A DNA stretch of 64,000 nucleotides, from IMG/VR virus record IMGVR_UViG_3300024258_000005. The stretch is one strand, 5' to 3'. Positions 6,049-62,434 of this stretch are shown here, piece by piece (the first letter of the stretch is position 1; each line of letters opens with the position of its first letter). Made by a program: the position numbers and the translations under genes. This DNA comes from a virus. The notes beneath the pieces are model-generated. The model did not search any database. It was not told where the DNA came from and was given only the letters and a program-made list of their open reading frames with translations.

Positions 6049-6582
6049 TTATTGTCCTTTTATTTTATCTTTTGCTATATTTTTTTCTAAAGAAGAATTA
6101 TAAACTTCAAGTATGTCAATTAATTCTAGTTCGATTTGACCCAGAAGTTTGTAAACAACTGGAGTACTAATTGTAAATATTAATTCATTTAGTACATTTA
6201 GATATTGTGAGTAATGAGATAGATTTGCAATTAAATCCATATTCTCAGCACTTGTATCGTTCTTTATATTATCTTGAAGAATATCTATCTTTCCAGATAA
6301 ATCAATAAGCTTATCATATAAAGTGAACTGAAGAAATTTATCTTCAGTTCCTTCTAATTCATATGTAAACAGTTCTTCTTCTGTTGGCTGAACTTCTTGA
6401 CCTTCTTCTTCTTCAGGTGCATCTTCCGCCGATTCTTCAGGTGCATCTTCCGCCGATTCTTCAGGTGCATCTTCCGCTGATGCATCTAATTCATCGTCTG
6501 AATTTAGTTCTTCAGCCTCTAACAGTAACAACAAAGGAAGATTAACCTCTTCCAATATTAGTCTCTGATTATAATTTAACAT
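6049..6582 (-). CDS. Acidic protein with LILE leader (putative head/core protein)
   Basis: Starts MLNYNQRLILEE; very Glu/Asp-rich with ESAEDAPE repeats; AACAAATA motif 36 nt upstream. Confidence 0.5.
   Translation of the reverse strand: MLNYNQRLILEEVNLPLLLLLEAEELNSDDELDASAEDAPEESAEDAPEESAEDAPEEEEGQEVQPTEEELFTYELEGTEDKFLQFTLYDKLIDLSGKIDILQDNIKNDTSAENMDLIANLSHYSQYLNVLNELIFTISTPVVYKLLGQIELELIDILEVYNSSLEKNIAKDKIKGQ
6409..6480. repeat. 24-bp tandem repeat x3 (in-frame ESAEDAPE-type)
   Basis: ttcttcaggtgcatcttccgccga repeated three times, one mismatch in the last copy. Confidence 0.95.
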
Positions 6583-12486: not shown

Positions 12487-15400
12487 TTATATTTTCTTAG
12501 CTGTTGTAATTGCTTCAGCAAATGCTGAATGTTTATCAATAGTATAAACATTCGTTTTACTTGCTTGTAGACCTTGAATAATACCCTGAAGGGCTGCTAA
12601 TTGCGCCATCATTATTTTTGATTGAGATTCGTTATTAATATCAAGTTTTGTCATCTTTTCTAACTCAATTGCTTCAAGTTTTAATAATTGCTCATCTTTT
12701 TTATCAATTACTCTATCTTCGCTAATGTTCGCGAAAGTACTATCAATTCTTTGTTGAGATTTTTTTATCTTCATACGATTCTTTTCATACTGAGCTTCTT
12801 TCGCTTCTTCTGATGTTAATTGATGAGAAGAATTTTCCGGATCAGTTGCTACAACTTTACTTTTCTTAAACATACTACTATGGAATTTTTGATTTAACAT
12901 ATCACCATCAGCAGCAAGCATTGCCTTCTGGTCTTTTTTAGATAATGTTTCCCAATAAGCTCTTCCACCTCTTTCCCAAGTATTATCACCTGATCCCATA
13001 GTATAATCAATTAAAGCATTTCCTGAAACATTAGTAGCAACAGTCTTTCCTGTACGCTCTTTAAGTTCTAAACGAATAGCAGTTCTCACCATTAAATTTA
13101 ACGTACCTTCTTTAAGCATATACATAAGTTCATCATTATCCATATCTTTAAAACGAGTACGAAGTTTTGCAATACTTTCATCTTTAAGTTGAGTACTAGT
13201 GTTGAAATGTATCATTGCTTCATCTAAATTATTTTTTTGTTCTTTAGATATAGCACCATCATTCTTGATACCTGATTTACCTTTTTCTTCTAGTCTTTCT
13301 TCTTCAGCATTATCAAAATAAAATTCAGCATATTTATAAGCACTATATGCAACAGCCCCTACAGCAAGAGCAGCAGCAACATAAGGAATTCTTAGAACTG
13401 CCATAATAGCAGTAGGAAATACGCTACCAATATTTTTTAAAACACCCATAAATCCAAGTTTCTTAAAATTAAGTTTACCAAATAAATCTTTAGTACGTTG
13501 CCATAGACTAGCACCGCCAGCTGGAGCTTTAGGTTTTGGAACTGTACGTTTACCAGGACCGCCACCACCGCCACCGAAATCGTAACCGATGCCACCGAAT
13601 CCGTCTAATAAACCAGACTCTTCTTGATTCTTTCTCATTCTTTTAGATATCTTTTTACGATTACCTTTAGTACAATTTCCACAAACACCATCACGAATTT
13701 CTTCTAAAAGGATAAGTTGTCTTTCTTGCATAGAGAATTTACGCTCTTGTTGTTCTTCCGACTTCTGAGAGTCCTGAGCGTCCTGAGCAGAAACATTTTC
13801 AGTTTCATCTTTATTCTTGCTACTAATAGATGATACTGATTGACCATCAGAATTTAAAAAGTTATCTAGGAAGCTATTACCACCTCTAGCTTTTTTAAGC
13901 TGTGAATCAATAAGTTTATCTTCATTTTTAGCGCTAAACATTTGTCCCCAAATACTAGGACTTGCATTTAATGTAGTCATCTGCTTCATCATTCGGTCTT
14001 TAATGTCTTCATCTTTGGCTGCATGATAATCATTACCAGCAAATGTACCGTCAAATTTATTCATACTCAATTCATCAAATTTAGAACGCTTTATTGGACC
14101 AGCCATTGATTTCAATGATTCCATTTGTGAATGGTTATACTTTAAAAGTAATTCAAATCTATCAGGATAAGCTTTACCTAAATAATTAGCCATAAGATCC
14201 TGAGGACCCAATTCAGTAGCACCAACTGCGTCTCGTAAAGCTTCTTCACTGTTAAGAGTAGTATTACTCAAATCACTGGCCATCCAATCGTACATAACTT
14301 CTTGTAATCCGCGATTCTTCTTACGTTTCTTCTTAGCACCCATTTTACCACTAGCTTGACGCTCCATGATAGTATCACCGTTTTCGTCTGTTTCATATAC
14401 TTGATTTCCATCAGCGTCTTTTTCAAGATCACCACCAAACATGTCCTTCACCCAGTTATAGCCACCGGATGCCATCTTAGCAGTACCAGATAATACATTA
14501 TACCCTGGAATATAACCAAGTTTTTCATCAATAGTTTTAAAATGTGATTCATAAAAAGAATCATCAGCCATATTATTGATTTCATTCTCTTCACGAATTC
14601 TAGCGAGAAGACCATGAGATGATGCTTGAGTAATACCGAAGCCATCAGTACGAATTTTTAAAAGTTCATGTGCTGAGAATCTACTAATTTCAGAAATAAG
14701 ACCAAGAATAGATAATTGTTTAGATTCAAATGTACTAGCTTTACTCATAATTTGAGAGGGTGTTGTATGTATAGCTTGAACTAAAGAACTTGAAACACCC
14801 ATCTTCTCAGCAAATTGTTCTTCACTTTGTAATGCATCAACACCTTTAATTTTACTATTCGCAGTGTTATACATTTCAGTAACTGATTTACCTTGCAGTG
14901 TAGCACTTAAATAAGTACCAGGATCGAAAGTACTTAAAGCGTTAGCCATACCCATTTCGATTCCACCAAAGAATCTATTAGTTAAACTTACATCTTTTGT
15001 TGAAGAGTCTGCAGAGTGTATGGTACCATCATCGCCAAATGTATCACTTAAAGTCTTTTGACCTCCGTAACCACCTTCTTTATTTTTACGAGATTCATTA
15101 TCTACAGACTCAGCTGCAATAAAAGGTAGAACTGATGTGTGACCTTCAATCATTGCTAAAATATTAGCAATAAGAGATTCACCAGGTTTCATCTGATGTT
15201 GATTTTGCAAACGTTTAATTTGCATTTGTAGCATACGCGTACTACCATAAGTAGTTTCTAGTTCATGTGGACTAGTACCCATAGTAGTCATTTGTGTACG
15301 ATTAATTTCTATTTTAGTACTTGAGTCTTTACTCATATACTTATTTAACGCACCGGCACCTTTCTGCATTGCTATCATAGAAGCAATACCCATACCCATT

Positions 15401-15960
15401 GGGCTCAATCCAGAGATAGCAGCTTGACCAGCACTTCCTAGTCCTAACATTCCAGCACCAGAAGCTAATCCTCCAGCAGCTGCAGAACCCATACCTTGCA
15501 TACCACCAAATAAACTTGAACCCATCATACCAGTACTTAATAGACTAGTGTTTAGCCCACCACCCATAGCAGCAGCACCATAAGCACCCGTTTTCATTAG
15601 TTTAGCAAAACTGCTTCCAGCTGATGCTGCACTTGCTGCAGCATCACCGAATCCTGAACCAGTTCCTGCCTTTTGATTTAAATTTCTTTGGTAAGCATTC
15701 TTTTGAGCATCTGCTGTTTGTTTAGCACCACTCATTAGCATCATAGCAGATGATACAGGTAACATAGGAGCCAACATTTCAGCCGCTTTTCCACCAACAG
15801 CACCAGCCGCTATTTTACCTACACCAGCCACCATCTTTAATTTTTTAAAAGCTCGAGAATTTAGTACTTTATTTAATCCAGTACGATCGCCAGTCTCAGC
15901 CATTTGATCAAGCATTGAGTAATACTGTTCCTGTATGGCATTTCTTTTCTTGTCAGACAA
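12487..15960 (-). CDS. Tape-measure-like protein
   Basis: 1157 aa, Ala/Gly/Met/Ser-rich helical composition with hydrophobic segments, located between terminase and baseplate-like genes; TTG start with AGGAG RBS. Confidence 0.6.
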   Translation of the reverse strand: MSDKKRNAIQEQYYSMLDQMAETGDRTGLNKVLNSRAFKKLKMVAGVGKIAAGAVGGKAAEMLAPMLPVSSAMMLMSGAKQTADAQKNAYQRNLNQKAGTGSGFGDAAASAASAGSSFAKLMKTGAYGAAAMGGGLNTSLLSTGMMGSSLFGGMQGMGSAAAGGLASGAGMLGLGSAGQAAISGLSPMGMGIASMIAMQKGAGALNKYMSKDSSTKIEINRTQMTTMGTSPHELETTYGSTRMLQMQIKRLQNQHQMKPGESLIANILAMIEGHTSVLPFIAAESVDNESRKNKEGGYGGQKTLSDTFGDDGTIHSADSSTKDVSLTNRFFGGIEMGMANALSTFDPGTYLSATLQGKSVTEMYNTANSKIKGVDALQSEEQFAEKMGVSSSLVQAIHTTPSQIMSKASTFESKQLSILGLISEISRFSAHELLKIRTDGFGITQASSHGLLARIREENEINNMADDSFYESHFKTIDEKLGYIPGYNVLSGTAKMASGGYNWVKDMFGGDLEKDADGNQVYETDENGDTIMERQASGKMGAKKKRKKNRGLQEVMYDWMASDLSNTTLNSEEALRDAVGATELGPQDLMANYLGKAYPDRFELLLKYNHSQMESLKSMAGPIKRSKFDELSMNKFDGTFAGNDYHAAKDEDIKDRMMKQMTTLNASPSIWGQMFSAKNEDKLIDSQLKKARGGNSFLDNFLNSDGQSVSSISSKNKDETENVSAQDAQDSQKSEEQQERKFSMQERQLILLEEIRDGVCGNCTKGNRKKISKRMRKNQEESGLLDGFGGIGYDFGGGGGGPGKRTVPKPKAPAGGASLWQRTKDLFGKLNFKKLGFMGVLKNIGSVFPTAIMAVLRIPYVAAALAVGAVAYSAYKYAEFYFDNAEEERLEEKGKSGIKNDGAISKEQKNNLDEAMIHFNTSTQLKDESIAKLRTRFKDMDNDELMYMLKEGTLNLMVRTAIRLELKERTGKTVATNVSGNALIDYTMGSGDNTWERGGRAYWETLSKKDQKAMLAADGDMLNQKFHSSMFKKSKVVATDPENSSHQLTSEEAKEAQYEKNRMKIKKSQQRIDSTFANISEDRVIDKKDEQLLKLEAIELEKMTKLDINNESQSKIMMAQLAALQGIIQGLQASKTNVYTIDKHSAFAEAITTAKKI

Positions 15961-16033: not shown

Positions 16034-16062
16034 TATCTAATCGGCTACATGCCGATTAGATA
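16034..16062 (-). terminator. Intrinsic terminator-like hairpin overlapping the terminase stop
   Basis: 12-bp perfect stem tatctaatcggc/gccgattagata, 5-nt loop, followed on the minus strand by CTCTTGT. Confidence 0.65.
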
Positions 16063-18180: not shown

Positions 18181-18444
18181 TTATTTGGGTATAGTACTAA
18201 GTAATCGTCTAGCGGCAAATGCTTCTTCTGCATCAGATATATCACCACCAGATGCGTCTTGCATGCTTTTGATTCTTGCACTATTCAAAGCAGCTGTACC
18301 TTTAGCTTCAATATTGCCATTTGCTATTCTATTCCAGTCAGCATCAGATAATGTACCACCTGAGTGAAATGCAGCCATCCTTGCTTTATTGGCGGCCATA
18401 ATATTACTTTCTAATATTAATCCTTTATTGATTTTATAAATCAT
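18181..18444 (-). CDS. Small LILE-leader protein (putative internal head protein)
   Basis: Starts MIYKINKGLILES. Confidence 0.55.
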   Translation of the reverse strand: MIYKINKGLILESNIMAANKARMAAFHSGGTLSDADWNRIANGNIEAKGTAALNSARIKSMQDASGGDISDAEEAFAARRLLSTIPK

Positions 18445-22811: not shown

Positions 22812-22997
22812 TTAATCCTCGTACTTAACAGAACTATCGTCGTCTTTAGGATATTTATCTTTTAACTGATCTTTGCCTATTCCACCATAAGTTGCAATAG
22901 GAGTAGCTGATCCAGACATAGCACCTGCGGATGAAACACCACCAACCATACCATCCATTTCCTGGATAATCTTTTTCTTTTCAATCGTTATTTTCAT
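22812..22997 (-). CDS. Small protein with variant leader (IIQE)
   Basis: Starts MKITIEKKKIIQEM; Gly/Ser-rich mature part; AACAAATA motif upstream. Confidence 0.45.
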   Translation of the reverse strand: MKITIEKKKIIQEMDGMVGGVSSAGAMSGSATPIATYGGIGKDQLKDKYPKDDDSSVKYED

Positions 22998-23704: not shown

Positions 23705-24115
23705 TTATTTACCCTGTGTTTTAACACGAAACTCGTTTCGTCTTTCTGGTTTATATCTACCATTTTTTAGATCATTTTTCATAGCCATAGATTTAGAAGT
23801 ATCTTTAATCGCTTTATCTTCTGATGAGCTAATACCTAACGGAGTGGGACTTTTCTCAATCTTATCTAATTTATTAAGCATGTCACGATTCGGCATTCTT
23901 ATCTCTTCAAGTAAAGATGCTTCAAAAAGTTCACGCATTTGAATTTGAATACTTTCCATAAGTCCATCATCAACAAGCATCTTACGAATTTGCATTGTTG
24001 ATTCATTAATCATAATTTTACCAAGAAGAGTTTCCTCTTCTGTTAATGAACTTTCCTCTAGAATCTCTAGAGAGTACTTCATACGAATGTTTTCTAATAT
24101 TAAATCTAATTTCAT
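23705..24115 (-). CDS. MKLDLILEN paralogue family member (putative internal head protein)
   Basis: First about 60 aa conserved with 27024..27404 and 30279..30911. Confidence 0.6.
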   Translation of the reverse strand: MKLDLILENIRMKYSLEILEESSLTEEETLLGKIMINESTMQIRKMLVDDGLMESIQIQMRELFEASLLEEIRMPNRDMLNKLDKIEKSPTPLGISSSEDKAIKDTSKSMAMKNDLKNGRYKPERRNEFRVKTQGK

Positions 24116-24117
24116 TT

Positions 24118-24459
24118 CTAACCCTTTGTTCCAGCAATTGATTCATACATTGAATCAGTATCATAATTATGTCTCTGTATAATAGCCACACCTTTATCAA
24201 GTACTTTATTACCAGTATATGCTAATCCAGCAGCCCCCGCCGCAGCCATACCAGGAATCAAAACTCCCTCTTCTAAAGGCTTATCAGCACTCTTCTGAGC
24301 ATTCTTTTCCATTCCAGCTAAATTCTTTAAAGTTGTTGGATGATTTGGACCAAGTCTATCATTTTGTTTAATAGTTGCTTCTGTTACTTTTTCATTCATT
24401 AACATAGTGCTGCTAGCACTAGCTTCTAAAATTAATCTTTTATCTAATTTATATATCAT
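24118..24459 (-). CDS. LILE-leader protein with Gly/Ala hydrophobic segment
   Basis: Starts MIYKLDKRLILEA; contains GVLIPGMAAAGAAGLAY. Confidence 0.6.
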   Translation of the reverse strand: MIYKLDKRLILEASASSTMLMNEKVTEATIKQNDRLGPNHPTTLKNLAGMEKNAQKSADKPLEEGVLIPGMAAAGAAGLAYTGNKVLDKGVAIIQRHNYDTDSMYESIAGTKG

Positions 24460-24469
24460 TTATTTTCCT

Positions 24470-24661
24470 TTATGTTAAAGTATAAGCAGTTGCTACTAAA
24501 GCTCCTATACCAGCAGCTGCTGGTATAATACTGCCATCTTTTTTTTCTAGTATATCGTTTTCTTTTTTCAATAATCGATGATCAACATTTATTGTCATTC
24601 CTGGATGATTCTTACGCGTAGCATCCATATATTCTAATATTAATTTTTTATTTAGTTTCAT
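24470..24661 (-). CDS. LILE-leader small protein
   Basis: Start reassigned to ATG 24661 (MKLNKKLILEY...), overlapping the upstream stop; C-terminal IIPAAAGIGALVATAY. Confidence 0.6.
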   Translation of the reverse strand: MKLNKKLILEYMDATRKNHPGMTINVDHRLLKKENDILEKKDGSIIPAAAGIGALVATAYTLT

Positions 24662-25664
24662 AAATATCCTTAATAAACACTTCAGTGTTTCCACCTGAAT
24701 TTAATACTTTAATATTCTCTTCTATTAAATATTGAGAATTATCTTTAATGATTTTTTGTTCTTCAATATATGCGTCCCGACCTGTTTCGAATTGAGTTTC
24801 TTTTAAAATTTTGATTTTTTTATAATCTGTTTTAGAATATCGTTCCTTAACTGATCTAGATGTAATTCCAATTTTATAATATTTTTTATTATCAAAAGTT
24901 ATTTCTAAATAATATAAGATTGTCGGAGCATTATAAACTGCTCCGTTGATATTATTAATATGATTAATATCTAAATCTTTAAATTTTCTAAGACTAGCAT
25001 TACTAGACACATTAAAGAATCTACAAAAATCATTTTTTAAAATCATTCTATGTTCATTTAAGAAATTATTCTCAATAAAATCTTTATCATAATATTTATC
25101 ATAATTGGTTATATCTCTCTCGTGTGCAAATCTTACACCATATTTTTTAAGGGAAGTATCCATTCTTTTTTGATACATAATATATTTATTCAATTTTAAA
25201 ACATCTCGAGAATTTTGTTTCGATGTTTCTGTACAAGCACTTAATGCTCCATACTTCAACATCATTGTGTTATCTCTAGTCTCTTTTTGTTTAATTAAAT
25301 CTATTTCACCATCTTTATATTTACGACTAACTTCATTATATGCATCTTTGTCTGTGTTCCGACACTCGTGTGAACAATAGTTTCCAAAAACCATATTATT
25401 CATTTTATAAACTTTATGATTAGAACAGTCTTTATGTTTGCATTTTAAATCAGATTCTTCGTAACCATCATTAATAATTTTAAATCTAATTTTTAAATCA
25501 TCTTTTAAATCGTATTTGTCTTGTGATGTATACCATTTAGTTTCATCATAAAGTATTTTTAAACTATCTTTTACTTCTGATAACTTATTGGTAAGTAGAC
25601 TATGTTTAAGTTTACCTACTTTATTTTTTAGTATGTTTAGATACTCTGTATCGTATTGTTTCAT
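24648..25664 (-). CDS. Homing endonuclease-like protein, GIY-YIG/T5orf172-type C-terminal domain
   Basis: Cys-rich N-terminus (CKHKDCSN...YCSHEC), KYG repeats, C-terminal LYYL...YYKIGITSRSVKERY...EEQKII...GGNTEVF. Confidence 0.75.
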   Translation of the reverse strand: MKQYDTEYLNILKNKVGKLKHSLLTNKLSEVKDSLKILYDETKWYTSQDKYDLKDDLKIRFKIINDGYEESDLKCKHKDCSNHKVYKMNNMVFGNYCSHECRNTDKDAYNEVSRKYKDGEIDLIKQKETRDNTMMLKYGALSACTETSKQNSRDVLKLNKYIMYQKRMDTSLKKYGVRFAHERDITNYDKYYDKDFIENNFLNEHRMILKNDFCRFFNVSSNASLRKFKDLDINHINNINGAVYNAPTILYYLEITFDNKKYYKIGITSRSVKERYSKTDYKKIKILKETQFETGRDAYIEEQKIIKDNSQYLIEENIKVLNSGGNTEVFIKDIYETK

Positions 25665-25725
25665 AACATTTTCCTTAATAATTATATATTAAGTATTTGT
25701 TAACTGACATAACCTTAAACTTTTC

Positions 25726-26442
25726 TTAAAGCAGCCAAATGTAAGAATCTGGAGGCGTGCGTTTTAATTCGGTAATAGTTTCTCTACGAAGCTCTTTAGC
25801 ATCGTTTATAAGTTCTTCTGCATTTAATTGAATTGATCCAAATGGTGTATTGAAGTTATTAAACTTCTTACGTATTTTACCAATAGCATTCATTATATAA
25901 CTTGTACTAAGATCTCTAAATGAATCGTACAGTGCTGGACTAATACTAGTTGGATCAGCATGCGCAACATTTAACACAACTACAAATTCTCTTGATAAAT
26001 AAGAATAACCTGCTCTTTGCATTTGTATCTTATCAGGTGGGAGGAATTTCCACGTATTATCAGCCTGAGTTATTGAAGCCATATCTAAATAATTCTGGCG
26101 GACTAAAAAGTCTGTAATATCTCCTGCAACTGATTGTGAAAACATTTGATTATAATCTACATAGTTTGCTTGTTCGATAATTGAACTAATACCAAGAATC
26201 TTATAATCAAAGTTTGTAAATTGGTAAGTAATAATAGGATCTTGGCTAATTATATTACCTTCAAACATTTTATAATATTTTACAAGAGGATCATAATTAC
26301 TGAACTCAGGCATTACGTGCATTTTTATTTTTTCCATAATTTGTTGATCTGTTAACTCTAGAGCCATTACATCAGCACCAAGTTCTGTTTTAATATAATC
26401 AATTATATTATCCCATGATTGCCATGAAGTACATGTTGCCAT
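25726..26442 (-). CDS. Neck/head-completion protein (T4 gp13-like)
   Basis: IIDYIKTELGA...ELTDQQI and IGKIRKKF....PFGSIQLNAEELINDAK...L...PP parallel gp13 LKDYILRRLGAP...ELT.DQI and G.....H.G..LPGGV..DG..LIEEA...PP. Confidence 0.75.
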   Translation of the reverse strand: MATCTSWQSWDNIIDYIKTELGADVMALELTDQQIMEKIKMHVMPEFSNYDPLVKYYKMFEGNIISQDPIITYQFTNFDYKILGISSIIEQANYVDYNQMFSQSVAGDITDFLVRQNYLDMASITQADNTWKFLPPDKIQMQRAGYSYLSREFVVVLNVAHADPTSISPALYDSFRDLSTSYIMNAIGKIRKKFNNFNTPFGSIQLNAEELINDAKELRRETITELKRTPPDSYIWLL

Positions 26443-26513
26443 ATTTAATTCCTTTTTATCTCTATCGATAAAGATAGTTTATATAGTTATTTGTTAGCTT
26501 AGTGAATTTAAGC

Positions 26514-26542
26514 ACAAGAAAATATAAGCCGAAGCTTATATT
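26514..26542 (-). terminator. Terminator hairpin with cUUCGg tetraloop followed by TTTCTTGT
   Basis: Minus strand AATATAAGC-TTCG-GCTTATATT-TTCTTGT, overlapping the stop of 26541..27014. Confidence 0.75.
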
Positions 26543-27014
26543 ATTTTCTAAATTGGTTTCGTCCACTAAATAGTTTACCTATACCATATTCGATACCAGG
26601 AGCAACTGCAGTATTTATAGCAGCACCTACTGGAGCACCAATAAGAGCACCTACTGGACCACCCGCCATGAATCCTGCTACTGTACCAACACTAGCACCA
26701 TTAATACCTTTATTAATCATATTACTAGGTGTATAAGCATCATCTACAGTTAACTTACTTTTTGGTTCTGCTGATGTTGCTCCAAGAGCTCCAGCACGTC
26801 CTAAAAGAGTTCCTGCAACAGGATGTCCAAGTTTATCACCTACTTCATAACCAGCAGTCGCTTGACCAATCTTACTTGCCAATGTACCAACAACTGGAAT
26901 TCCAGCAGTTGCATTTAAAAGTCTTTCAGATGTTTTGTTTGTGTCATCAAATATTTGTCTTTGATTACCAACAAAACTTTCAAGTATAAGACTTTTAGAC
27001 AATTCAATTTTCAT
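26541..27014 (-). CDS. LILE-leader glycine-zipper protein
   Basis: Starts MKIELSKSLILES; contains GASVGTVAGFMAGGPVGALIGAPVGAAI. Confidence 0.6.
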   Translation of the reverse strand: MKIELSKSLILESFVGNQRQIFDDTNKTSERLLNATAGIPVVGTLASKIGQATAGYEVGDKLGHPVAGTLLGRAGALGATSAEPKSKLTVDDAYTPSNMINKGINGASVGTVAGFMAGGPVGALIGAPVGAAINTAVAPGIEYGIGKLFSGRNQFRK

Positions 27015-27023
27015 TTTATATCC

Positions 27024-27404
27024 TTATTTTTCTCCGTCTTTACCAGCTTCAGAACTTGTGTTCCAACCAGCATCAACTTTTTCAAAGAATTTCTTCTTAT
27101 CTTCATCAGGCATTGCCTCTACAGAATCGTATTTACACTTCGCAAGCTCAGCTTTAAAATATTTATCATACGCTGCACCTTTAGCAGATTCCTCTAATAA
27201 AGTATTTGTCCAAGCTTCTTCTAATACATTCTGAACGTTGGTAATAGTACCTTCTTCAACAAGTATCTTACGAATAGTTGATAATGATTCATTGATTAAA
27301 ATTTTACCTTTAAGTAAATCAATTTCTGATACACTTTCACCTTCTTCTAGAAGTCCCAATGTGTATTTGTTTTTTACATTTTCTAATATTAAATCTAATT
27401 TCAT
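27024..27404 (-). CDS. MKLDLILEN paralogue family member
   Basis: Shared N-terminal about 60 aa; distinct C-terminus. Confidence 0.6.
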   Translation of the reverse strand: MKLDLILENVKNKYTLGLLEEGESVSEIDLLKGKILINESLSTIRKILVEEGTITNVQNVLEEAWTNTLLEESAKGAAYDKYFKAELAKCKYDSVEAMPDEDKKKFFEKVDAGWNTSSEAGKDGEK

Positions 27405-27418
27405 AAGATTTCCTTTAT

Positions 27419-27793
27419 TTAATTTAAAGCACCTGCTGCTAATACACCAGTACCTAATGCAGCAGCTCCGCCTAATATATCAGCAGATCTATTTTTATTG
27501 TTTAATAAATCAGTTGTAGCTCTATCAGCTACTTTATCAATTTGTGGTGAATATTTATTTGCTAAATATGCACCACCTATTGCACCTGCAACTGGTCCAG
27601 CAATTAACGCTGCACTAGGAGCGGCAACACCTGCACCAACTAATCCAGCTACGCCACCTAATCCTAATTTAGTACCAGCAAGAGTACCAACCGTAGTATT
27701 AAATCCTTTATTAAAAGGAGTGTTCATTTCTTTTGGAGTAGCATATTGAAAATTTTCAAGTATAAGACGCTTATCTAATTGTACTTTCATCAT
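27419..27793 (-). CDS. LILE-leader glycine-zipper protein
   Basis: Starts MMKVQLDKRLILEN; long GxxxG-type Gly/Ala run. Confidence 0.6.
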   Translation of the reverse strand: MMKVQLDKRLILENFQYATPKEMNTPFNKGFNTTVGTLAGTKLGLGGVAGLVGAGVAAPSAALIAGPVAGAIGGAYLANKYSPQIDKVADRATTDLLNNKNRSADILGGAAALGTGVLAAGALN

Positions 27794-27798
27794 GTTTC

Positions 27799-28329
27799 CT
27801 ATTTAATTATATTTTTAAAATTTTGAAAAACTCTAGAGGGAGAACTATCTATTTTCATCGGTTGAGAATTATTACTAAAATATGGTAGATCTTTAGCACT
27901 ACCTGGTTGATATTTTGTACCAAATAATAAAGTACTTGGATTTAAGTTTTCATTACTTGCATCATATATCTTTTGTGCTTCATGTTGAGGTAATTTACTA
28001 ACATACTCTTTTGCATCTTTTAAAGCATTTGCTTCATGATTCTTAAAAGGAGTTAATGCATTAACGACTTCTTTAGGGTGATTATCTGAATGGTTTTGTG
28101 GAAACATATACTGATGTAGTCTACGAGGCTCATGACTTGAAATATGTGTTCCACGACTATCCATATCCAATAGTTGTGCTCCTATATTTTTATTATCAAA
28201 TGTTTTTTGAGCATTTGAAATAACATCATTTTCAGCAGCAGTTCTAGCAGCAGAGTACTCAAATCCATCTAAACCATCAAGTCCTTCAAATTCTTCAAGT
28301 ATCTTATGTTTATCTAATTGTACTTTCAT
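27799..28329 (-). CDS. ILE-leader protein
   Basis: Starts MKVQLDKHKILEE. Confidence 0.6.
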   Translation of the reverse strand: MKVQLDKHKILEEFEGLDGLDGFEYSAARTAAENDVISNAQKTFDNKNIGAQLLDMDSRGTHISSHEPRRLHQYMFPQNHSDNHPKEVVNALTPFKNHEANALKDAKEYVSKLPQHEAQKIYDASNENLNPSTLLFGTKYQPGSAKDLPYFSNNSQPMKIDSSPSRVFQNFKNIIK

Positions 28330-28541
28330 TATGCTGCACCTGGATCTAAAGTTTTAACTAATTCACCACTAAGTTTATTTATACCATAAGCTGCGCCACC
28401 TAGAATTCCAACAGGAATTGCTACGTTTGCTACTTTACTTGTAGTACTTTGAGGAATACCAGCTGCTCTTTGAGCTTGTACTTGTTGCATGTGATGATAA
28501 TTCGCTTCTAGAATTAAAGCTTTGTCTAATTTTACTTTCAT
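28329..28541 (-). CDS. LILE-leader small protein with hydrophobic Gly segment
   Basis: Starts MKVKLDKALILEA; contains VAIPVGILGGAAYGI. Confidence 0.6.
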   Translation of the reverse strand: MKVKLDKALILEANYHHMQQVQAQRAAGIPQSTTSKVANVAIPVGILGGAAYGINKLSGELVKTLDPGAA

Positions 28542-28556
28542 AATATTTCCTTTTGT

Positions 28557-29201
28557 TTATATTTTTTTATATTTTTTTACTATATTTTTTAACTTGATAG
28601 CATTATTTCGTTTTGTTATAATTCTTTTAGGAACTATTTGAGGAGATGTTAATGGTGTTTTTCTTTTTATATCACCAGGTTGTACTAAAGGTTTTGATCT
28701 ATTATCCATTGCTGTTTGAGTAGGCTTATTTAAATCTCTTGGCTCCCTTATAGGCTCTTTTTTATAAAAAGCATTATTCTTTTTTTGAGGACCATGTTGC
28801 ATACCAGTATCTACACCGACAGGAGGAGGATTTTCTTTTCTCTTCTCATCAGCTACCCATTGCTTAGTTTTAGCAACACCTTTATTTAAAGCACTTATAG
28901 TATTTGTAGCACCTTTTGAAACAGCAGCTTTATTATTTAAAGCTAATGCTCCTGCACCTAAAGCTGTCCCAGCCATTAAACCTTTAGTTGCAACATTTTC
29001 CCAATCTGTCCCAGGAGCTTCTGTAACATGATTTACTGTATGAATATTTGTAACGGGTCTATTTATAGGAGTGTCATCTGATAATGCGTCTGTAGCTAAA
29101 CCACCGGCCACTAAACCACCAATACCAGCTAAATATTTTCCAGAATGTTTCTTTAAATGTTCTGAAAAATTTTCAAGTATAACATCTTTATGTAATTTCA
29201 T
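28557..29201 (-). CDS. VILE-leader protein, basic C-terminus; paralogue of 29529..30187
   Basis: Starts MKLHKDVILEN; shares RKENP.P.GVDTGM.HGPQK...QPGDIKRK.PLT.P.IVP with its neighbour. Confidence 0.65.
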   Translation of the reverse strand: MKLHKDVILENFSEHLKKHSGKYLAGIGGLVAGGLATDALSDDTPINRPVTNIHTVNHVTEAPGTDWENVATKGLMAGTALGAGALALNNKAAVSKGATNTISALNKGVAKTKQWVADEKRKENPPPVGVDTGMQHGPQKKNNAFYKKEPIREPRDLNKPTQTAMDNRSKPLVQPGDIKRKTPLTSPQIVPKRIITKRNNAIKLKNIVKKYKKI

Positions 29202-29247
29202 TTTATATCCTTTTTCTTATCAATTTGTTAATTGTTTATTTTAATGG

Positions 29248-29282
29248 ACAAGAAAATACTACAAGCCTGAGCTTGTAGTATT
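29248..29282 (-). terminator. Hairpin + TTTCTTGT terminator-like element
   Basis: 12-bp stem aatactacaagc/gcttgtagtatt, 4-nt loop. Confidence 0.7.
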
Positions 29283-29302
29283 TAGGATAAATTGTTACTG
29301 AT

Positions 29303-29482
29303 TTACAAGACCATCAACATATCTACCAGCGTCTTGAACGCCTTGTTTAATTGTTTGTCAGCATCTTCATACGCATTAATAATATCATCCGAGTAGTGAC
29401 CGGCGAGCGCTCCAATACCTGCAACTGTAAGTATTTTACTATAATTTTCCAGTATTAATTTCTTATCTGTTTGAACTATCAT
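29303..29482 (-). CDS. LILE-leader small protein (missed by the ORF track; probable 1-nt frameshift near the 3' end)
   Basis: Manual translation MIVQTDKKLILENYSKILTVAGIGALAGHYSDD... (59 aa). The alternative frame ends KQGVQDAGRYVDGLVNQ* (stop at 29295), resembling the end of 30279..30911. Confidence 0.6.
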   Translation of the reverse strand: MIVQTDKKLILENYSKILTVAGIGALAGHYSDDIINAYEDADKQLNKAFKTLVDMLMVL

Positions 29483-29528
29483 ATCATTTACATTTTTTTG
29501 TAATTAGCATTATTAGATACTACACTTT

Positions 29529-30187
29529 TTAATTTATTAATATTTTTCGCTTATTTATAACTCGTTGAGGAACAATCGCTGGGCCAGTTAAAGGTTTTTT
29601 GCGCTTTATATCACCTGGTTGACTAAGAGAATTTAATGAAACATCTTTAGCCACTGAGGTTGGTTCATTTAAATTTCTATGTAAAGGTTTAACCTTTTTG
29701 TAAAAAGTGTTATTTCGTTTTTGAGGCCCATGAGTCATTCCTGTATCAACTCCAATCGGAGTAGGGTTTTCTTTACGTTTTTCTGAAGCAACCCATTTTT
29801 TAGTTGAATCAACTCCTCTATTTATTGCAGATACTGCAGTATTTATACCACCTTGAGTTGCTTGACCCATAGAAGTATTTATTTTATCTGCAGCATTGAT
29901 AGTATTGGTTGCAACCTTTGCAGCACCAGATGACACATCTTTAATACCATTAACATTTTTAGATATCAATCCAGCTACACCAAGACCGGCTCCAGTCAAT
30001 AAACTTTTGTTTGCAATATCATTCCAATCTGTATTACTAGGAGATTCTTTAATATTATTAGTTATATGTTGAGTAGGTTCTTCTTCGCCATCAAAAGCAT
30101 TAGTCAATCCAACACCAGCTAAAATACCCGCACCAGCTAAATATTTTCCAGAAAATTTTCTAGAATTAAATTTTTATTAATTATCAT
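29529..30187 (-). pseudogene. Frameshifted paralogue of 28557..29201 (pseudogene, programmed -1 shift or sequence error)
   Basis: ATG 30187 with strong RBS gives MIINKNLILENFLENI*; the -1 frame continues SGKYLAGAGILAGVGLTNAFD..., collinear with the paralogue. Confidence 0.65.
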
Positions 30188-30243
30188 TATAATTTCCTTT
30201 ATTAAATATTTGTTAATAAAGGAAATTATAATGATAATTAATA
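30175..30243. repeat. Perfect 31-bp inverted repeat, 7-nt loop, covering an RBS and start codon
   Basis: tattaattatcattataatttcctttattaa - atatttg - ttaataaaggaaattataatgataattaata. Confidence 0.95.
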
Positions 30244-30244
30244 T

Positions 30245-30274
30245 AGGCATTGCAGATATATATCTGCAATGCCT
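30245..30274 (-). terminator. Perfect 30-bp palindrome downstream of 30279..30911
   Basis: aggcattgcagatat/atatctgcaatgcct directly after the stop codon. Confidence 0.6.
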
Positions 30275-30278
30275 TTCT

Positions 30279-30911
30279 TTATTGTTGTGTTAAACTATTT
30301 AAATAGTTTTCTGCGCCTTGAACACCTTGCTTAAGATTACCACTTATAGTGTCACCAACATGACCAAGTTTATCACTTAGCTCACTAGCACCTGATTTAA
30401 ATTTATTAGTATAGTCAGCTACTTTATCAATACTAGCATCTTGCATAGTTGTTGTATTATTAGCAACACCAGTAGCATTATTAGCAACACCAGTAGCATT
30501 ATTAGCAACACCAGCAGCATTATTAGCAACACCAGTAGTGTTATTAGCAACACCAGCAGCGTTAGCTACAATTCCTTGGTGAGCATTAGCAACCGATGCC
30601 GCATTATCAGCAATACCAGAATTTGTATGATCTACAAATTGTTTACCAGCATCATAAGCCATTTTACCACCAGCACCAACACCAGCTAAAGCACCAGCAC
30701 CAACTAAACGTTGACCCCAACCTTCTTCTAGAAGATCACGAACACCTTGCATAACTCCTTCTTCAACAAGCATTTTACGAATTTGCATTGTTGATTCATT
30801 AATCATGATTTTACCTTTAAGTAAATCTTTTTCAGACATACCCTCGGCTTCTTCAAGAAGACCTAAAGAATAACGATTACGAACATTTTCTAAGATTAAA
30901 TCTAATTTCAT
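30279..30911 (-). CDS. MKLDLILEN paralogue with ANNATGV repeats
   Basis: Shared N-terminal domain; LVGAGALAGVGAGG segment; 21-bp tandem repeats at about 30455-30566. Confidence 0.6.
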   Translation of the reverse strand: MKLDLILENVRNRYSLGLLEEAEGMSEKDLLKGKIMINESTMQIRKMLVEEGVMQGVRDLLEEGWGQRLVGAGALAGVGAGGKMAYDAGKQFVDHTNSGIADNAASVANAHQGIVANAAGVANNTTGVANNAAGVANNATGVANNATGVANNTTTMQDASIDKVADYTNKFKSGASELSDKLGHVGDTISGNLKQGVQGAENYLNSLTQQ

Positions 30912-30921
30912 CCGAATCTCC

Positions 30922-31464
30922 TTATTTCAAGTTCGCAAGGATTCTTGCAACAACTGTACTTGATTCTTCAAGTAATGCAGCTTCTTCAGCAACAACTTCA
31001 GACTCTTCGATTACTGGAGCTACTTCAGCTTCTTCAGCAACAACTTCAGACTCTTCGATTACTGGAGCTACTTCAGCTACTTCAGCAGGAACTTCTGATT
31101 CTTGCATTGGAGCCACTGCAGGAACTATTTCTTCTTCTGGCATTTCTTCATAACCTTCTTCCTCTTCAGGTTCACCATCTACAGGAATAAGTTGACCATC
31201 TTGGAATACATATTTGTTCCCAACAGCATCAAATAATTCAATTGGTGGCAATTCTTCTTCAGCATCAGGAACGTTAAGTTCATCAGGAATAAAATCTTCA
31301 GCCGCCTCTGTAATTACATCAGCACATAGATTGTGATAAAACTCTGCTTCTTCTAGAGTAACAGTACCATTTTTACTTAAGTGTCCAAGTACCATAGAAT
31401 TACCCATGTTAGTTGAAGTTTCTTCTAATACACCCGCAAGTGTTTGAGCGAAATATTCGTTCAT
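30922..31464 (-). CDS. Highly acidic putative prohead scaffold/core protein
   Basis: Very Glu-rich with multiple L/I-x-E sites and a duplicated 16-aa unit (EVAPVIEESEVVAEEA, 48-bp repeat at about 30980-31080). Confidence 0.5.
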   Translation of the reverse strand: MNEYFAQTLAGVLEETSTNMGNSMVLGHLSKNGTVTLEEAEFYHNLCADVITEAAEDFIPDELNVPDAEEELPPIELFDAVGNKYVFQDGQLIPVDGEPEEEEGYEEMPEEEIVPAVAPMQESEVPAEVAEVAPVIEESEVVAEEAEVAPVIEESEVVAEEAALLEESSTVVARILANLK

Positions 31465-44222: not shown

Positions 44223-45290
44223 TTATTTGATTGTTTCTTTAATTTGCTCGAACTTATATTTATTGTTAAAATATAATTCAATTAAATCAGGATCAAATGA
44301 TACTCCAGATTCTTCTTTAAAATATGTATCTATTTCTGATTCCAACCAAGCATTTTTATAAGGTCGAATTGAACTTAAAGCATCATATACATCAGCAATT
44401 GCTACCACTCGTCCTTCTATACTTATACTTTCTTCTTTAAGTTTATTTGGATAACCTGTACCATTCCATTTTTCATGATGATGATAACTAATAAGTCCAG
44501 CTGTTTTTAATACTGACAATTCTGAATGTTTAAATATGTCATGACCAAGTTTCGTATGATCTTTCATTATTTCAAATTCATCTATTGTTAATTTTCGTGG
44601 TGCATGTAAAATATTATCATCTATTCCTATTTTACCTGCATCATGCATAGGAGCAGCATACTTAATCAACTTGCTACGTTCCTCTGATAATCCATAAGCT
44701 CTTGCTAAAATATATGAATACTCAGCAACTCTTGCAACATGATGTTTTAAATCAGTATCTTTTCCTTCAATAATAGAACTCAAGTTGATAATAAGTTCTC
44801 TTTGTGATTCTTCAATTTCTTGACGAAGATCAATAAGTTCTGTTATATCTTGACGAAGAGCTAAAAATTCAAATATTTTATTATTTTTTATAATTGGAAA
44901 AATTGATAAAACACTCCATTTTGTTTCATTGAACTTAGTTTTATAACTAATATTACCTTTCCATATTTTACCAGATGATATAGTTCTCCACATATCTTTA
45001 TAAATAATAGGATCAGTATCATTATCTTTGATTATAGCATGAGTCTTACCTATAACCTCACCAAGTGTTAAATTATAAACTCTAAGAAATTCAGCATTTG
45101 CATACGTTATTACCCCTGCAATATCTGTTTTTGATATACAATAATTATGATTGAATATATCTTTATATTGAAACGCTATATCAATATCTGATGAGTCATG
45201 AGAAAATACATTACAATGTCTAGGACAGAATAGATGTCTAATATACCGAACAGGGTTAAATCTGCTGAGTGTCTCAAAACAATTTACCAT
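44223..45290 (-). CDS. PAS-domain HD-GYP cyclic dinucleotide phosphodiesterase
   Basis: PAS: ISKTDIAGVITYANAEF...GEVIGKTHAII...MWRTISSGKIWKG; HD-GYP: MHDAGKIG, HT..G, HHHEKWNGTGYP, VAIADVYDAL..RPYK. Confidence 0.9.
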   Translation of the reverse strand: MVNCFETLSRFNPVRYIRHLFCPRHCNVFSHDSSDIDIAFQYKDIFNHNYCISKTDIAGVITYANAEFLRVYNLTLGEVIGKTHAIIKDNDTDPIIYKDMWRTISSGKIWKGNISYKTKFNETKWSVLSIFPIIKNNKIFEFLALRQDITELIDLRQEIEESQRELIINLSSIIEGKDTDLKHHVARVAEYSYILARAYGLSEERSKLIKYAAPMHDAGKIGIDDNILHAPRKLTIDEFEIMKDHTKLGHDIFKHSELSVLKTAGLISYHHHEKWNGTGYPNKLKEESISIEGRVVAIADVYDALSSIRPYKNAWLESEIDTYFKEESGVSFDPDLIELYFNNKYKFEQIKETIK

Positions 45291-53539: not shown

Positions 53540-53567
53540 TATTTTTGTTAGCCAATTAAAGAGTACC
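53540..53567. repeat. 28-bp direct repeat, copy 2
   Basis: Contains the ParM stop codon (GYSLIG*). Confidence 0.95.
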
Positions 53568-54453
53568 CGTATACGTTACTGAATTCCTTCGGATCTGAAT
53601 TATATACAGTGTTTGGTGGCATTGGAACATCTTGAATATAATAAGCTCCTCCTCCAGCAATTAAAACTTTCTCAGCCATCATTAAAGTTTTCTTTTCTGA
53701 AACAAGTACCGAATTCATAAGTTTTTGTACAAATTTATTTTTTAAATCCGCAATTACTTTAGGGATATCTTCTTGTGGTGTTCCACCTAAAGAAAATTCT
53801 TTATCCATGAAAATTTTTAAAGCTTCTTGCTCTGAAAACGGCATACCATAAGCACTTTCCAAATAATTAGAGAAAGTTTTCATAATTGAAACAACGCCAT
53901 GTCCAGGAAACCCTTTCATTTTAGTTTGAATAGCTTCACCTCTTTCATAATAAAGAAAGTTAATTGTTCTATAACCAATATCAATAACACATAAAGATTT
54001 TGGTGGAGTTTGAGTTAATTCATTTTGAACAATATAAGCATTATATGCACCTGAACCTTGAGGTCCAACAACATTAACACCAGTAGCTACTGTTTCATTA
54101 TTAACTTTTAAGAAATTTAAACGTTCTTTAAATTCTTCGCGCTTAGACCAATCAGTTAAAGCTAGACCAGTATTTAAAGAAATATCTCCAGTAATTCCAA
54201 GCTTCTTAAAAATATGGAATACAATTAATGGAGCAAATTTAATTAGGAACTTGTAATCGGTTGTTGTGAAAGCCTCATCCGTAGCCAGTTCACCAACATA
54301 GTATTTTTCACCTTCAAAGTCATAAATAGCAGACTCACCAAATTCGATACCACAGTCATTAGCAAAGCTAATAGCAGTTGGTACTTTATAATATTGTGAA
54401 TTGAACATAATTTTACTTGAACTATATCCAATATCGATTGAAATTTTATTCAT
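53548..54453 (-). CDS. ParM/StbA-like actin-family ATPase
   Basis: Phosphate-1 IDIGYSSSK, YYVGE.A, V.PQG.GA, phosphate-2 VIDIGYRT.N, adenosine IAGGGA, P.EFSNVYGY. Confidence 0.88.
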   Translation of the reverse strand: MNKISIDIGYSSSKIMFNSQYYKVPTAISFANDCGIEFGESAIYDFEGEKYYVGELATDEAFTTTDYKFLIKFAPLIVFHIFKKLGITGDISLNTGLALTDWSKREEFKERLNFLKVNNETVATGVNVVGPQGSGAYNAYIVQNELTQTPPKSLCVIDIGYRTINFLYYERGEAIQTKMKGFPGHGVVSIMKTFSNYLESAYGMPFSEQEALKIFMDKEFSLGGTPQEDIPKVIADLKNKFVQKLMNSVLVSEKKTLMMAEKVLIAGGGAYYIQDVPMPPNTVYNSDPKEFSNVYGYSLIG

Positions 54454-61762: not shown

Positions 61763-62434
61763 TTACATCGATTGTTTATCAAATTCTCTATCTCTAACTC
61801 TTGCAGTTAAAATATTAGGATTTGTATGATGCATCTTATTATATACTTTCTTTTGACCATCAACATCACCGTCTAGAACAGAATCAAAATATCGCTTACC
61901 ATTTCCATGACCAGCAAGTGAACCCATTGTTAAATTAGTTTGTTGTTGTCTTGATAATTGATTAGCATCTTTATGAATTTTAGCATCATCTATCCAATCC
62001 ATATTTCTAGCGATTTTAGGCATATCTCTATTGATTCGATTTATACCAGTAGTTACAGAATCATTAGTATTTTGATATAATCCTTTCGCACTAGTAAAAC
62101 CATTATCACCAACAGTCTTTCCTGAATTTTCAATGTTTCCAAGAGTCTTCATAAATCTATGTGAATTATCTACAGATTTTTCATAAGGTAATCCAAAACG
62201 TTCAGATTGATCTCTAATGATTCTTAATGAATTTTTATTGAATTCATCATATTTTGATTTTAAAATATTAGAACCTTTTGTAGGTTCTTGATGCTGACCT
62301 AGAATCTTTTCATCTTGTAAATGATTATCTAATGATTCCCCATTATTTTCAATAGCTTCTTCATTAGATACACCATTTATTAAATCTTGTAAATAACTTT
62401 CAACTATTAAGTGTTTTTTGATTTTATAAATCAC
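61763..62434 (-). CDS. Lysozyme/lytic-transglycosylase-like protein with LIVE leader
   Basis: Starts MIYKIKKHLIVES; C-terminal IENSG...SAKGLYQ resembles the SLT/lysozyme-like catalytic region. Confidence 0.55.
   Translation of the reverse strand: MIYKIKKHLIVESYLQDLINGVSNEEAIENNGESLDNHLQDEKILGQHQEPTKGSNILKSKYDEFNKNSLRIIRDQSERFGLPYEKSVDNSHRFMKTLGNIENSGKTVGDNGFTSAKGLYQNTNDSVTTGINRINRDMPKIARNMDWIDDAKIHKDANQLSRQQQTNLTMGSLAGHGNGKRYFDSVLDGDVDGQKKVYNKMHHTNPNILTARVRDREFDKQSM

Follow-up and report, generated by a model that had tools for sequence, protein, structure and literature searches.

A cassette of leader-tagged glycine-zipper proteins in an uncultured jumbo phage suggests a possible route from phage head to host membrane

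Introduction

To our knowledge, how myoviruses and jumbo phages pass their DNA across the inner membrane is largely unknown, as are the roles of the proteins held inside their heads. A 64,000-nucleotide stretch of viral DNA, IMG/VR record IMGVR_UViG_3300024258_000005 (hereafter, the window), encodes a cassette of small proteins that share a short N-terminal leader, about half of which carry glycine-zipper helices. The source of the window is an uncultured marine jumbo phage, distantly T4-like, with T4-type head and neck genes. We find that the tagged proteins are quite probably protease-matured proteins of the head interior. More tentatively, with a confidence that falls just short of even, we propose that the zipper-bearing cargos are packaged, cleaved by the head protease, and ejected, and that they act in the membranes of the host.

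A leader shared with the major capsid protein

Fifteen open reading frames (ORFs), all on the minus strand, start with M.K..(L)DK.LILE followed by N, S, A, or E, with the glutamate at residue 8 to 13. Named by their first window coordinate, they are 6049, 18181, 23705, 24118, 24470, 26541, 27024, 27419, 27799, 28329, 28557, 29303, 30279, 37282, and 61763. Adding the variant leader of 22812 and the frame-shifted gene 29529..30190 gives 15 to 17 tagged ORFs in all. In about 60 kb of flanking sequence from this phage, the motif did not turn up at any further plausible N-terminus. By inspection, the leaders are charged and lack a hydrophobic h-region. The zipper-bearing ORFs named in an earlier note on this DNA therefore have no Sec-type signal, just as that note had claimed.

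The head genes were reached by walking along a near-identical 181-kb contig (L007). Three other contigs were compared: L008 (65 kb, reached through a homologue of 28557), L011 (137 kb and more distant), and L012, a diverged relative. L007 encodes a head maturation protease (L007:13684-14478) that matches phrog_207 (E = 2.7e-22); its matches to the Pfam S80 and S77 families fall below cut-off (E = 3.6e-4 and 7.9e-4, respectively), and its L012 homologue has PF03420 and PF20034 on record. The protease gene lies directly upstream of the major capsid protein gene (L007:14556-16175). The capsid protein itself begins MNENLILENF, the same LILE-N motif as in the cargo leaders, and its L012 counterpart begins MAKLIDNLILENY. 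This motif match suggests that the capsid protein may be matured at a cargo-type site. Because the capsid protein shares the motif and adjoins the protease, the tag reads as a T4-type capsid-targeting and cleavage signal, a role that is well supported by these sequence relationships.

The leader region of the more distant contig (L011:6257-9767) contains the leaders MKTFKEKILEE, MTFKQKIIEE, and MSLFRDKIIFEN, which are close to those of the T4 internal proteins IPI-III (MKTFKEF, MKTYQEFIAE). This likeness suggests that the tag and the T4 capsid-targeting sequence (CTS) share ancestry.

Tagged proteins carry one of two leader types. Short-leader cargos mostly have a single [LI]xE site, that of the leader. 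By contrast, 23705, 27024, and 30279 have in common a carrier of about 65 amino acids (aa) that opens with the same motif, and such carrier-type cargos have seven to nine stacked [LI]xE sites, all inside the first ~72 residues. The L008 orthologue of 26541 bears a long carrier in place of the short leader, so the two are interchangeable modules. Statistics did not convincingly show the mature parts to be depleted of internal [LI]xE sites, and such depletion is not used as evidence.

Two further observations concern the tag. A metagenomic member of the 26541 family (P0054) ends in VVTLDKQLILESFN, which is a second leader; here, two adjacent cargo genes appear to have been fused or read through. 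Adjoining the cassette, 30922..31464 (minus strand) encodes a very acidic protein of 180 aa with 40 Glu residues, repeated VAEEAEVAPVIEESEV, and seven [LI]xE sites. It is kept in L008 and is a candidate scaffold or core protein.

Glycine-zipper segments in the tagged proteins

The earlier note had named eight ORFs with GxxxG helices (24118, 24470, 26541, 27419, 28329, 28557, 29303, and 30279). All eight were found, on the minus strand and at the coordinates given, and the two peptides that it quoted are exact. Its claim that the cargos are enriched in Gly/Ala zippers also holds. We defined a Gly/Ala segment as a 15-mer without Asp, Glu, Lys, or Arg, with at least six Gly plus Ala residues and a mean Kyte-Doolittle (KD) hydropathy of at least 1.0, a criterion chosen after seeing the data. 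Such segments occur in 8 of the 15 leader ORFs, compared with 2 of the 74 other ORFs in the window (Fisher test, P = 3.5e-6). Among 12 pooled segments, Gly-Gly spacings of 4 (z = 2.75, P = 0.006) and 8 (z = 3.57, P = 0.0004) exceed within-segment shuffles, and no other spacing does. The GxxxG(xxxG) periodicity is therefore real and goes beyond mere composition.

The association recurs in the relatives. Every Gly/Ala-segment protein in L008, L011, and L012 bears a leader: an automatic count gave 7/15 tagged proteins against 3/49 others (P = 8e-4), and the three apparent exceptions have leaders that the search pattern missed. Zippers are still present in the L008 orthologues of 30279, 28557, and 26541, which have 43-51% identity. 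Encoded in the L011 cassette are a member of the 26541 family, a protein with two zippers, and another whose zipper directly follows its leader.

The strongest zipper case is 27419..27790 (123 aa, leader MKVQLDKRLILE), with a 37-residue uncharged zipper run (LGLGGVAGLVGAGVAAPSAALIAGPVAGAIGGAYLAN) and a 19-residue C-terminal run. A homologue search recovered only the protein itself; ESM Atlas scores reached no more than 0.82, and its own model has a pLDDT (predicted local distance difference test) of 0.47. The longest run, 39 residues, is that of 26541..27014, a basic protein of 157 aa with the leader MKIELSKSLILE. Two zippers (YLAGIGGLVAGGLAT and GLMAGTALGAGALAL) are found in 28557..29201, a basic cargo of 214 aa (mature isoelectric point (pI) 10.2, leader MKLHKDVILE) with a conserved basic C-terminal domain, W.V..EKR.ENP.P.GVDTGM.HGP; a search for its family found close relatives only.

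Its paralogue 29529..30190, also with two zippers (YLAGAGILAGVGL and SLLTGAGLGVAGLIS), is the ninth zipper case. A -1 frame change at A_AAT_TTT_C, just past the leader MIINKNLILENF, divides this gene. The break lies in GAA AAT TTT C, which holds the canonical slippery heptamer A_AAT_TTT; four T occur in a row, whereas five would be needed to stay in frame. The frame-changed sequence is identical in three independent contigs (the window, L009, and L010), ruling out a read error; the gene is thus a fixed pseudogene or the site of a programmed -1 slip.

In 30279..30911, the zipper GWGQRLVGAGALAGVGAGGKMAY comes immediately after a carrier of ~63-72 aa (MKLDLILEN..., seven [LI]xE sites at residues 8-63), and GVANNxT heptad repeats come next; its L008 orthologue (L008:9260-9913) keeps both carrier and zipper. 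The repeat, GVANN(A/T)T in five to six tandem copies at residues ~115-155, is degenerate in that orthologue. The 59-aa product of 29303..29482 (leader MIVQTDKKLILE) has its zipper, ILTVAGIGALAGHY, near the mature N-terminus, and 28329..28541 encodes 70 aa with the leader MKVKLDKALILE and the zipper VANVAIPVGILGGAAYGIN. A C-terminal zipper, IIPAAAGIGALVATAYTLT, is present in the 63-aa protein of 24470..24661 (leader MKLNKKLILE), whose true start is probably the internal MKLNKKLILEY at 24661. A single zipper (GVLIPGMAAAGAAGLAYTGN) occurs in 24118..24459 (113 aa, leader MIYKLDKRLILE), and its positional orthologue, L008:15229-15585, has retained a zipper at low sequence identity.

The zippers are only marginally hydrophobic. 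At the classical threshold of 1.6 for hydropathy over 19 residues (KD19), only 27419 qualifies (1.75), with the others at 0.85-1.59. Apart from the long runs of 27419 and 26541, the uncharged runs span 14-21 residues; the 29303 zipper (15 residues) barely passes the 15-mer test, and that of 30279 (LVGAGALAGVGAGG, 14 residues) is too short and fails it. Judged from sequence, the zipper cargos are not ordinary integral membrane or secreted proteins. Their weak hydrophobicity and lack of a signal peptide are as expected for proteins that must stay soluble to be packaged. Solubility in the producer cell and in the capsid is reasonable, because the helices are too weakly hydrophobic for co-translational insertion.

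Database searches with the cargos were largely negative. Nine of ten had no match in PHROGs, the exception being a weak match of 28329 to phrog_6223 (E = 0.0091), and Pfam returned only sub-threshold matches of a compositional type (DUF456, Gly-zipper_YMGG, and an RTX N-terminal domain). The idea that the zipper cargos are mutual paralogues was rejected, as hhalign shows the leader alone to be common to them.

A side observation concerns one of the two non-leader ORFs with a Gly/Ala segment, 12487..15960 (minus strand). Its 1157-aa product, without a Pfam or PHROG match, is the sole other protein of the window with strong hydrophobic Gly/Ala segments; it also has a C-terminal transmembrane-like helix and may be a tape-measure-like or giant ejected protein.

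The 26541 family

We built a profile from 26541 and its two L008 homologues and searched it against 1.84 billion cluster representatives. This recovered 50 proteins at E <= 1e-3, 32 of them at E <= 1e-10. The ten members that were looked up are all metagenomic, and none has a function name. PHROGs gave no match for 26541; PDB sequence searches with profiles A1, A2, and A5 found nothing; and tblastn of the family member P0009 against cultured phages found no match, although the low-complexity filter may hide some.

Alignment A5, of 38 sequences, shows a common order of elements. The leader is followed by a polar helix, a conserved GY..G..GHP.AG..LGReGA.GA.S block, and I..DVYT..N; a Gly/Ala-rich region of variable length, PA..YGLGKlFG, and a basic tail come after. 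At least 29 of the 38 aligned members have a hydrophobic-hydrophobic-Glu leader, and 36 have a Gly/Ala segment. The L012 member sits between the protease gene and the capsid gene.

From the 38-sequence alignment, AlphaFold2 produced a model that is compact and all-helical (pLDDT 85.9, predicted template modelling score (pTM) 0.78), where a 3-sequence alignment had yielded an unusable one (pLDDT 41.5). Fold searches with the better model returned no significant match: the best E values were 2.3 (Foldseek against PDB) and 0.5 (BFVD), and a wide VIA-align scan reached a best Z of 5.8, with generic helical bundles only. The 26541 protein founds a widespread, previously undescribed family that is known from metagenomes only and has a confidently modelled fold.

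Proposed mechanism and alternative explanations

Our proposal is that the products of the 22.8-30.9 kb cassette are internal head proteins of a jumbo phage that is distantly T4-like. The tag, or the ~65-aa carrier that opens with it, would send each cargo into the prohead core, and the prohead serine protease would then cut the tag off after Glu. About half of the mature cargos, mostly basic, would present uncharged GxxxG helices of 14-39 residues, predicted to be too weak for insertion by the Sec/YidC machinery of the producer cell. These zipper cargos would stay soluble, their helices probably packed in helical bundles, and be packaged in that state. On infection, they would exit via the tail, with or ahead of the DNA. 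Their zipper helices would then oligomerise in the membranes of the host envelope, where they could line or anchor a DNA conduit or permeabilise the membrane; this envelope step is modelled on P22 gp7*/gp16 and T7 gp14/gp16. Packaging, cleavage, ejection, and membrane insertion are all steps that we infer.

The earlier note had described the cargos as soluble in the capsid and membrane-inserting once ejected. The first part is reasonable, given the weak hydropathy and the bundle model of one family; the second is argued by analogy, and we regard it as plausible. An early membrane vesicle and a superinfection-exclusion barrier had been suggested as well. We found no support for either, and no phiKZ inner-body or chimallivirus-type protein was seen.

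The proposal can be extended. Giant phages of this clade might carry in their heads a multi-protein glycine-zipper "ejectosome," loaded by a T4-type tag and assembling in host membranes, an idea that we consider rather unlikely, though far from negligible. Such an assembly would serve as a channel for DNA in the inner membrane, as a depolarising pore, or as the starting point of an early membrane compartment.

Several observations weigh against a role in host membranes. Those T4 head cargos with known roles are soluble anti-defence, anti-restriction, or DNA-associated proteins, not membrane proteins. No homology to any known ejection protein was detectable in PHROGs, in Pfam, or by hhalign against P22 gp7, and the phage is known from metagenomes alone. 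Most segments, at 14-21 residues, are short for spanning a bilayer, and their Hessa-scale sums are all positive (approximately +3.4 to +9.8 kcal/mol). Long hydrophilic, acidic inserts break up the Gly/Ala region of many 26541-family members, an arrangement that would be awkward for a translocated hairpin. Finally, the modelled 26541 structure reads as a soluble-looking bundle that would fit a purely structural role equally well.

The best-surviving alternative keeps the tagged proteins in the head and has the zippers act there only, their helices packing tightly to build an inner core or "inner body" or a DNA-organising, charge-neutralising matrix for a very large head. The mature zipper cargos are mostly basic (pI 8.3-10.2), as is the aligned 26541 family (median mature pI 9.4), which suits contact with DNA. 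The compact, soluble-type bundle, the sub-threshold hydrophobicity, and the hydrophilic inserts point the same way, and the relatives conserve three of the zipper families, a pattern expected of structural components. Giant phages are also known to hold large internal protein bodies (PMC5694885; bioRxiv 10.1101/2024.03.24.586471). However, the T4 internal proteins, which have that job, lack such segments, whereas the type of segment seen here coincides with that of the membrane-inserting ejection proteins of P22 and T7. Furthermore, Tyr and Lys/Asn caps at the segment ends resemble interfacial anchoring on sequence inspection. On balance, we judge action in the capsid only to be unlikely, if still of some weight.

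A second alternative makes the tagged proteins transient parts of the prohead core or scaffold, cut up and expelled, with the Gly/Ala stretches as protease-resistant leftovers that have no later function. T4 gp22, gp67, and gp68 bear the same kind of site and are degraded to peptides (PMC9958956), and the seven to nine stacked sites of the carrier-type proteins would fit such a fate. The short-leader zipper cargos, however, usually have one site, in the leader, so their mature chain would stay whole, and a folded domain of ~140 residues is conserved in the 26541 family. We therefore consider this explanation improbable.

It is very improbable that these are small non-virion proteins, membrane-active and of a bacteriocin, holin, or exclusion type, whose shared N-terminus is regulatory or translational: their composition does resemble that of Gly/Ala-rich microcins and of the Pfam glycine-zipper families (weak, sub-threshold matches), but the major capsid protein carries the same motif, head and neck genes surround the cargo genes (which in L012 fall between those for the protease and the capsid protein), only 27419 has classical transmembrane strength, and the bacteriocin, holin, and secreted-protein readings were rejected on the charged leaders, the lack of a signal peptide or double-glycine leader and of export and immunity genes, and the head-gene context.

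Other tagged proteins and the genomic setting

Several tagged proteins have no zipper. Within the cassette, these are 27799..28329 (MKVQLDKHKILEE...) and the carrier-type cargos 23705..24115 and 27024..27404 (MKLDLILEN...), the latter with an acidic payload. Beyond the cassette, they include 18181..18444 (MIYKINKGLILES); the very acidic 6049..6582 (MLNYNQRLILEE, net charge -35); and 61763..62434 (MIYKIKKHLIVES), a protein of 223 aa without a family match. The variant leader MKITIEKKKIIQE belongs to 22812..22997, a Gly-rich ORF of 61 aa with an L008 counterpart at 16046-16243. All of these are on the minus strand.

The cassette is surrounded by head, neck, and endonuclease genes. Inside it, 25726..26442 (minus strand) encodes a T4 gp13-like neck/head-completion protein (phrog_18911 and phrog_211), the L008 orthologue of which carries PF26809 (Phage_T4_gp13). 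L008 has the same gene order as the window, from the RNA polymerase beta gene through the cassette to the gp13-like gene. An IMG/VR scan with the gp13-like neighbour as query returned nothing.

The window has ~29% G+C, and nearly all of its genes are on the minus strand. They encode a split beta subunit of a multisubunit RNA polymerase, an exonuclease, homing endonucleases, and virion proteins. No near DNA match to the window was found among 50,697 cultured-phage records, and megablast of the cassette against cultured phages likewise gave no match. The large terminase has only ~25% identity to those of AR9-like Bacillus phages and cyanophages. Metagenomic contigs of 181 kb and 260 kb (ENA, JGI samples) encode proteins identical to those of the window.

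Two other minus-strand genes were observed in the window. An actin-like/ParM-like protein is encoded at 53548..54453 (PF17989, 1.6e-11; PF21522, 1.4e-10), and 44223..45290 encodes a protein with PAS and HD_5 (HD-GYP-type) domains, a possible cyclic-nucleotide phosphodiesterase.

Implications

Among the defined candidates that the locus offers are a short tag predicted to be cleavable, some nine small zipper proteins, and a widespread new family for which a confident model exists. All of them lend themselves to simple assays of expression, cleavage, and liposome interaction without a cultured phage, and the tag could double as a packaging handle. If the "ejectosome" idea were true, membrane-inserting, head-borne pilot proteins would be general in large phages and no speciality of short-tailed ones, and the 26541 family would represent a new soluble-to-membrane helical-bundle fold.

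Comparison with known systems

The nearest parallel for the tag is T4, in which gp21 processes the capsid protein and trims short N-terminal peptides off IPI, IPII, IPIII, and Alt (PMC9958956), and in which the CTS loads unrelated proteins into the core (PMC3012670). Here, too, a short N-terminal leader ending in hydrophobic-x-Glu stands on otherwise unrelated small proteins, the major capsid protein has a matching site, and the protease is of the S77/S80 type. There are two differences. T4 internal proteins have no Gly/Ala hydrophobic segment (IPI, IPII, and IPIII are negative in our segment test, with a maximum KD19 of 0.3-0.5), whereas half of the ~16 tagged genes here bear zippers. The second leader type, the ~65-aa carrier, also sets this phage apart from T4.

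For the zippers, the closest parallels are the ejection proteins of P22 and T7. Among the P22 proteins, gp7 and gp16 are positive in the segment test and gp20 and gp14 negative; gp7 owes its result to the C-terminal AIGGGASGAIAGAGLAKLIGSSTPWGAAIGGGIGLLGSLF, a Gly zipper. In T7, gp14 and gp16 are positive, the capsid protein gp10A is a false positive, and gp6.7, 7.3, 8, 9, 11, 12, 13, and 15 are negative. Beyond T4 IPI-III, 12 control proteins in total were negative, with that one false positive. The P22 and T7 ejection proteins have a maximum KD19 of 1.2-1.4, the same marginal range as the cargos here. Thus, the cargos resemble P22 gp7*/gp16 and T7 gp14/gp16 in having a marginally hydrophobic zipper segment; those proteins are encapsidated, and packaging of the cargos is predicted. 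Processed P22 gp7* forms a dodecamer with a V-shaped C-terminal two-helix hairpin in the outer membrane (bioRxiv 10.64898/2026.09.03.749273).

This resemblance does not extend to homology. The cargos show none to P22 gp7 (PF25688): hhalign of the 26541 family against gp7 gave a probability of 11.9% over 17 zipper residues, and 1 of 38 family members matches PF25688 (E = 0.0067). The P22 record has 20 N-terminal residues of gp7 cleaved, and that leader is cut by a host protease, whereas we propose the prohead protease here. P22 and T7 are also short-tailed phages that need an ejected conduit and have one to three such proteins, in contrast to the nine zipper proteins of this cassette.

Jumbo phages provide a third comparison. 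SPN3US gp47, a head protein processed by the protease, is predicted to have a transmembrane helix in its mature part, and its authors have speculated that it interacts with the host membrane (PMC5694885). SPN3US gp47, phiKZ gp86, and the phiKZ inner-body proteins have a propeptide cleaved by the prohead protease, and this phage shares with theirs a multisubunit RNA polymerase of its own. Their propeptides, however, are ~80-125 aa long with an S/A/G-x-E motif, and their helices are strongly hydrophobic, in contrast to the glycine zippers here. The phiKZ inner-body family PF12699 was not detected in ten cargos (E <= 1) or in 38 family members (E <= 0.01).

In helix composition (small-xxx-small), the cargos are like the Pfam families Gly-zipper_YMGG (PF13441), Gly-zipper_Omp (PF13488), and Rick_17kDa_Anti (PF05433), although those families comprise lipoproteins or envelope proteins that bear signal peptides. 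Against PF13441, PF13488, PF05433, and PF13436, 26541 scores 15.4 bits (cut-off, 28.9) and the other cargos have no match; weak matches to glycine-zipper families occur in 5 of the 38 aligned 26541-family members (best E = 1.7e-5). A full-text literature search found no paper that ties glycine zippers to capsid-internal proteins. Tagged, protease-processed, and packaged proteins, some of which enter membranes, are thus of a known kind. What is new is the joining of a T4-type tag to many glycine-zipper cargos in one phage, together with a carrier-type leader that is interchangeable with the short one.

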